Source of the DNA: Escherichia coli
GTDB lineage: Bacteria; Pseudomonadota; Gammaproteobacteria; Enterobacterales; Enterobacteriaceae
Assembly: GCF_044324875.1 (NCBI RefSeq)
Contig: NZ_CP172185.1
Reading direction: 5' to 3' (one strand)
Length of the DNA: 64,000 nucleotides
Shown here in pieces: positions 23,151 through 23,417 of this stretch. Made by a program: the position numbers and the translations under genes. A model generated the notes under the pieces. The model was given only the letters and a program-made list of their open reading frames with translations, did no database searches and had not been told where the DNA came from. Numbering within the stretch: the stretch's first letter is position 1; the number at the start of each line of letters is the position of its first letter.

Positions 23151-23417
23151 ATGGAATGGCTGGTCAAAAAATCGTGCTGCAATAAACAAGATAACAGACA
23201 TGTACTTATGCTCTGCGATGCTGGCGGCGCGATAAAAATGATCGCCGAAGTGAAGAGTGACTTCGCCGTGAAAGTGGGGGATTTACTCTCCCCTTTGCAG
23301 AATGCGCTTTATTGTATTAATCGTGAAAAGCTGCATACGGTGAAAGTCCTCTCGGCAAGCAGTTATAGCCCCGATGAGTGGGAACGGCAGTGTACAGCGG
23401 CAGGGAAAACTCAGTAA
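23151..23417 (+). CDS. pmrD: Signal transduction protein PmrD
   Basis: 88 aa from MEWLVKK...; its 3' end overlaps the convergent arnF 3' end by 7 bp. Confidence 0.85.

Follow-up and report, generated by a model that had tools for sequence, protein, structure and literature searches.

The convergent pmrD and arnF genes of Escherichia coli overlap in a real, ordinary and already known tail-to-tail junction

The polymyxin-resistance genes pmrD and arnF of Escherichia coli converge and overlap by 7 nt at their stop codons, and this overlap is a real, ordinary and already known feature. We analysed it within a 64,000-nt stretch of E. coli DNA (contig NZ_CP172185.1, hereafter the window) and compared the junction with its counterparts in related genera. 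In our judgement it is most probably a compact tail-to-tail junction that arose by stop-codon drift, with overlapping 3′ transcript ends, factor-dependent stopping and no demonstrated regulatory role. As it stands the observation, though correct, is of little import, since the locus is well studied and its public annotation already records the overlap.

The two coding sequences share their stop codons

It had been predicted that the stops of pmrD (plus strand) and arnF (minus strand) overlap by 7 bp, and both a direct reading of the sequence and the open reading frame list bear this out: the genes lie on opposite strands, and their 3′ ends share 7 nt that include both stop codons (Table 1). 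The shared segment also takes in part of the final two sense codons of pmrD (ACT CAG), together with the final sense codon of arnF (TAC) and part of CGT. One practical consequence is that tagging or deleting the 3′ end of either gene alters the final codons and the stop of its partner.

Table 1 Features at and around the pmrD/arnF junction, with positions in the window
Feature	Position	Strand	Details
pmrD CDS	23151..23417	+	ATG 23151; stop TAA 23415-23417; 88 aa
arnF CDS	23411..23797	-	ATG 23797; stop TGA = reverse complement of TCA 23411-23413; 128 aa
Shared 7-nt segment TCAGTAA	23411..23417		common to the pmrD and arnF 3′ ends; both stop codons inside
arnE	23797-24132	-	upstream of arnF, same operon
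arnT	24129-25781	-	same arn operon
menE-pmrD intergenic region	23042..23150	+	109 nt; contains the pmrD promoter
C>G stretch, candidate Rho loading region	23431..23547	+	C/G 1.5-1.9; untranslated continuation of pmrD mRNA, antisense to arnF
Untranslated continuation of arn RNA, candidate Rho loading region	23203..23410	-	antisense to pmrD; no hairpin plus U-tract
Palindrome CTTCCCAGCCGGGAAG	23503..23518		inside arnF, codons L-P-G-W-E-G; 86-101 nt past the pmrD stop

Both pmrD and arnF are securely genuine protein-coding genes: PmrD reaches 174 bits with NCBIfam equivalog NF011994 (cut-off 96) and also matches Pfam PF11183, and ArnF scores 139.5 bits against the equivalog NF002816 (cut-off 99). 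The pmrD product is the PhoP-activated connector protein; arnF encodes a subunit of the Ara4N-undecaprenyl-phosphate flippase and is the final gene of the arnBCADTEF operon. On one side pmrD adjoins the end of the arn operon without any spacer; on the other lies menE, and the menE-pmrD spacer aligns as strongly conserved across Escherichia from ~23080 on. The ends of arnT/arnE and of arnE/arnF overlap by 4 and 1 nt respectively, so that transcription from the arn promoter reaches the pmrD junction.

RefSeq annotates the identical 7-nt overlap in K-12, 118UI and JJ1887, and the feature is therefore both real and already on record. Over 901 bases centred on this locus the window shows 100% identity to 118UI and 97.9% to K-12, and of 5426 complete E. 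coli genomes, 5419 carry the region.

With the 118UI annotation mapped onto the window, nine convergent CDS pairs can be counted, and arnF/pmrD is the only one to overlap, the remaining eight being separated by gaps of 38-220 nt. Across E. coli, convergent CDS overlaps have been put at 58 (PMC2174442) or 75 (PMC4161906), and the pmrD/arnF junction is a member of this well-described minority class, not a rare event. As in known prokaryotic tail-to-tail pairs, whose overlaps originate in stop codon movement, two real genes here share a few bases including both stops. Known convergent overlaps have a modal length of 4 nt (CTAA, TTAA, CTAG or TTAG), whereas pmrD/arnF shares 7 nt (TCAGTAA); the Salmonella orthologues, with 6 nt, are also off this mode.

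Two observations concern PmrD itself. Compared with K-12, the protein encoded in the window carries TA instead of KV at residues 82-83, adjoining the overlap. Truncated PmrD clusters are also numerous among E. coli-like sequences (one of 69 aa with 116 members, and two of 55 aa with 44 and 38 members), which suggests that frameshift or nonsense alleles of pmrD are frequent in natural populations.

The missing spacer is conserved across three genera

A PmrD profile search of species-representative genomes returned 18 loci, in each of which both stops were then located. The 7-nt overlap TCAGTAA recurs in E. coli K-12, 118UI and JJ1887 and in Escherichia sp. MOD1-EC7003, and E. albertii has an overlap of the same length (TCAGTAG). 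In S. enterica and subsp. diarizonae the overlap is 6 nt (TCATGA), and at ten Citrobacter loci the genes are separated by a gap of 0 to +9 nt. Judged by this sequence comparison, what is conserved across Escherichia, Salmonella and Citrobacter is the missing spacer, and not the overlap itself: stop codon positions shift within ~15 nt across the three genera, and in no species that we examined would a terminator fit between pmrD and arnF.

In the PmrD alignment conservation is lowest at the C-terminus, and the curated profiles stop at residue 85 of 88 in PmrD and 122 of 128 in ArnF. Because both family profiles thus end before the shared codons, these lie in variable C-terminal tails that look dispensable. 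Stops drifting within such unconstrained tails would yield the 7-nt overlap of Escherichia, the 6-nt overlap of Salmonella and the 0-9 nt gap of Citrobacter.

Two Escherichia lineages, sp. MOD1-EC7003 (locus L005) and a genome labelled E. coli SCPM-O-B-8794 (locus L006), are without arnBCADTE; in both, menE and pmrD are followed by what is left of the 3′ part of arnF, then by ais and nudI. In the former this remnant spans arnF codons 39-128 and is joined to a piece of arnT (locus positions 2760-3420); in the latter only ~22 codons of arnF are left, and the pmrD open reading frame is 90 aa long (2750-3180). Since pmrD has been kept in both lineages after loss of the arn operon, its persistence does not need a convergent arn operon. 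More distant PmrD homologues, from Pseudocitrobacter and metagenomic sequences, lie in unrelated gene contexts and are therefore uninformative on the junction.

Two further loci depart from the common arrangement. In S. enterica subsp. arizonae CCUG 6322T (locus L017, 2756-3126) the arnF match is split into three pieces, which suggests that the gene is frameshifted there and makes the apparent spacing of +23 at this locus unreliable. In Intestinirhabdus alba (locus L019, 2501-2758) the pmrD homologue is 85 aa long, and no arnF match was seen up to 2.5 kb downstream.

Both transcripts probably end inside the partner gene

The original prediction went on to say that the overlap leaves no room for separate terminators, and that transcription from each side must read into the other gene. 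The latter holds, as each mRNA must enter the other CDS to carry its own stop codon. The former is right in that intergenic space is zero, but it is overstated, because the partner CDS can host terminators and Rho needs no intergenic space. For convergently overlapping genes at large, terminators must sit within the partner CDS, where an intrinsic one is predicted for only ~20% of the E. coli genes that overlap convergently (PMC2174442).

When E. coli, E. albertii, C. braakii and S. diarizonae were scanned for terminator patterns, none turned up immediately 3′ of either the pmrD or the arnF stop, and site counts stayed close to shuffle expectation; a promoter pattern scan around the junction in the same four genomes likewise gave counts at shuffle expectation. 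RNA folding downstream of the stops was unremarkable (z = -1.78 on the plus strand and +0.85 on the minus strand), and positions 21000-26000 gave no Rfam match at E up to 1. There being neither intergenic DNA nor a stem-loop between the genes, the junction does not form a bidirectional intrinsic terminator.

Rho can load on C-rich, G-poor RNA once ribosomes leave at a stop codon. Because no intergenic terminator intervenes, each transcript would continue untranslated into the partner gene, and on both strands this continuation has more C than G. On the plus strand, C/G runs at 1.3-1.9 over positions 23418-23560; on the minus strand it runs at 1.1-1.8 over 23410-23203, except for one 78-nt window at 0.83, standing at ~1.4 right after the arnF stop and at 1.8 over 23280-23203. 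Such a composition is compatible with Rho but not specific to it, and as Rho evidence it is weak. From this bias on both strands, together with the lack of a convincing intrinsic terminator, we infer that Rho or polymerase collision is the likely route by which both transcripts terminate. Each would then probably end inside the partner gene, with a weak hairpin in arnF possibly helping on the pmrD side.

Programmed RNA polymerase collisions are a known route at convergent E. coli genes, as described by SEnd-seq (bioRxiv 10.1101/2022.10.23.513370). By analogy, head-on collision is a plausible contributor at pmrD/arnF, where, as at those genes, opposing transcripts must be kept from colliding. 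The SEnd-seq cases differ in that a stem-loop with an A-tract and a U-tract on its flanks lies between the genes, whereas the only palindrome near the pmrD/arnF junction is found 86 nt into arnF, with a U-tract on one side only. Neither pmrD, arnF, arnT and menE nor their b-numbers have an entry in the Term-seq supplements of Adams 2021, and the locus has none in SMRT-Cappable-seq. Besides ExcludonFinder, discussed below, we found no literature on pmrD that deals with Rho-dependent termination or transcriptional interference.

On the opposite side of pmrD, the 109-nt spacer contains no terminator-like site after menE, so that transcripts of the men operon could likewise run on co-directionally into pmrD.

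Transcript overlap and a possible antisense feedback

The pmrD and arn transcripts would, on the account given so far, overlap at their 3′ ends in an excludon-type geometry, and the evidence that they do so comes from a published RNA-seq listing. ExcludonFinder (NAR 2025, PMC12288877) catalogues arnF-pmrD among 165 convergent excludons in MG1655, their transcript overlap being detected in at least 50% of 58 RNA-seq data sets from this strain, and gives it as an example of functionally related partners. The antisense idea contained in the original prediction is thus already published at survey level, and its regulatory half, in which arn read-through would interfere with the pmrD message, is plausible and has likewise been put forward in print. 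Because the coding sequences overlap by 7 nt, the transcripts must overlap by at least as much; the listing is therefore near-automatic when both genes are transcribed, and inverse expression is not implied by it. Classic excludons have long overlapping UTRs and demonstrated reciprocal expression, whereas the arnF-pmrD entry follows almost by itself from the CDS overlap.

PmrD protects phospho-PmrA, which activates arn. A negative feedback in cis could therefore be envisaged, in which PmrA-activated arn read-through across pmrD lowers PmrD, either because polymerases collide or because RNase III cuts the duplex, and so damps the path from PhoP through PmrD to PmrA. This proposal, which is the same as the excludon one, strikes us as unlikely. 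It gains from the fact that arnF lacks a downstream spacer or canonical terminator in every species examined, and from the functional link between the two genes, named as a functionally related pair by ExcludonFinder (PMC12288877). The listing is, however, automatic for overlapping coding sequences and no proof of inverse expression, and the two Escherichia lineages that retain pmrD without an arn operon also speak against the proposal.

Precedent for the outcome exists in Salmonella, where PmrA lowers pmrD expression (Kato, Latifi and Groisman 2003, as cited in PMC2565834, PMC3140997 and PMC3335776), just as the hypothesis would have it for active PmrA. The published mechanism differs, the repression being attributed to binding of PmrA to the pmrD promoter (PMC3335776, citing Kato et al. 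2003) and not to antisense transcription from arn, and the same group reports that the PmrA-pmrD feedback loop is absent in E. coli (PMC3140997). That arn read-through forms a second, cis-antisense arm of the PmrA feedback on pmrD, through transcriptional interference or RNase III cleavage, is a long shot in our estimation; if true, it would explain why the spacer-free layout has been kept in Escherichia, Salmonella and Citrobacter.

The expression pattern of the two genes points the same way. pmrD is under PhoP control (PMC2565834), and pmrD and the arn genes are induced together in low Mg2+ through the PhoP-PmrD-PmrA pathway (PMC2565834, PMC3140997), unlike the genes of a mutually exclusive excludon. 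Low Mg2+ is meant to switch both genes on together, which counts against the feedback and disfavours strict mutual exclusion of pmrD and arnF.

Among the entries covered of the p19 tables of RNase III duplexes (Huang et al. 2020), none falls at pmrD or arnF by name or coordinate, both genes being probably, by our assumption, poorly expressed under the conditions used; the only duplexes near the locus in these entries are at the 3′ end of menE and in arnD. In the same study, operon overlaps of the convergent kind had a dsRNA density 37.9-fold below that of divergent ones, which again weighs against the feedback. On the other side, the listed menE duplexes indicate that E. coli makes minus-strand RNA opposite the menE 3′ end, downstream of pmrD in the sense of arn transcription, and long arn read-through could explain it. 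These duplexes map in the window to 23019-23040, the last 22 nt of menE, and to 22944-22964, ~76 nt upstream. The sole minus-strand promoter-like site that we found is at 23167..23140 (TTGACC-16-TATCCT), within the first pmrD codons, and the menE-antisense RNA could come either from this site or from read-through across pmrD.

The evidence on an actual regulatory effect of the overlap is thus thin and leans negative, and we infer that it has no dedicated regulatory role. Two points count against reading the junction as an ordinary one: pmrD and arnF work in one pathway, and a spacer-free convergent layout kept in three genera would also fit selection for coupling. Were the antisense feedback true, the PhoP-PmrD-PmrA circuit that governs lipid A modification and polymyxin/colistin resistance would gain a further layer acting after initiation, and there would be a tested example among many excludons that are so far only catalogue entries.

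A palindrome inside arnF

A second alternative would place an intrinsic terminator within arnF itself, where the palindrome at 23503-23518 would end or stabilise the pmrD mRNA ~100 nt past its stop and so limit the overlap to a short segment. The palindrome forms a GC-rich stem of 6 bp with a 4-nt loop (-9.2 kcal/mol), and every Escherichia sequence examined retains the stem. In E. albertii the palindrome fits the terminator pattern on the plus strand, and in C. braakii on the minus strand; in E. coli it is terminator-like on the minus strand, with the tail GAACTTTTTC, whereas its plus-strand tail TATCATTGAT falls one T below the U-tract threshold. Efficient action on the minus strand cannot be envisaged, because the arnF mRNA would be truncated 30 codons early, and pattern-scan sites are no more numerous than in shuffles. 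As a conserved terminator we reject the palindrome: its stem is dictated by the conserved L-P-G-W-E/Q-G codons and has been lost in several Citrobacter. An embedded terminator for pmrD is rather improbable, and the palindrome probably arises incidentally from the coding sequence, serving at most as a weak 3′-end hairpin for the pmrD mRNA.

That the overlap is an annotation artefact, through a wrong stop call or an unreal gene, has next to no chance of being true, since the reading frames fix the stop positions and thereby already refute it, both proteins score well above their curated equivalog cut-offs, the same gene ends are annotated in independent genomes, and no support for it was found.

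Other features of the window

Elsewhere in the window, at ~34314-35955, the 118UI annotation shows a partial IS200/IS605 tnpA and an intact gene for an InsQ/TnpB-family RNA-guided endonuclease between yfaV and yfaY, and near yfaU there is an ISNCY-family rpnE together with a truncated hypothetical gene.
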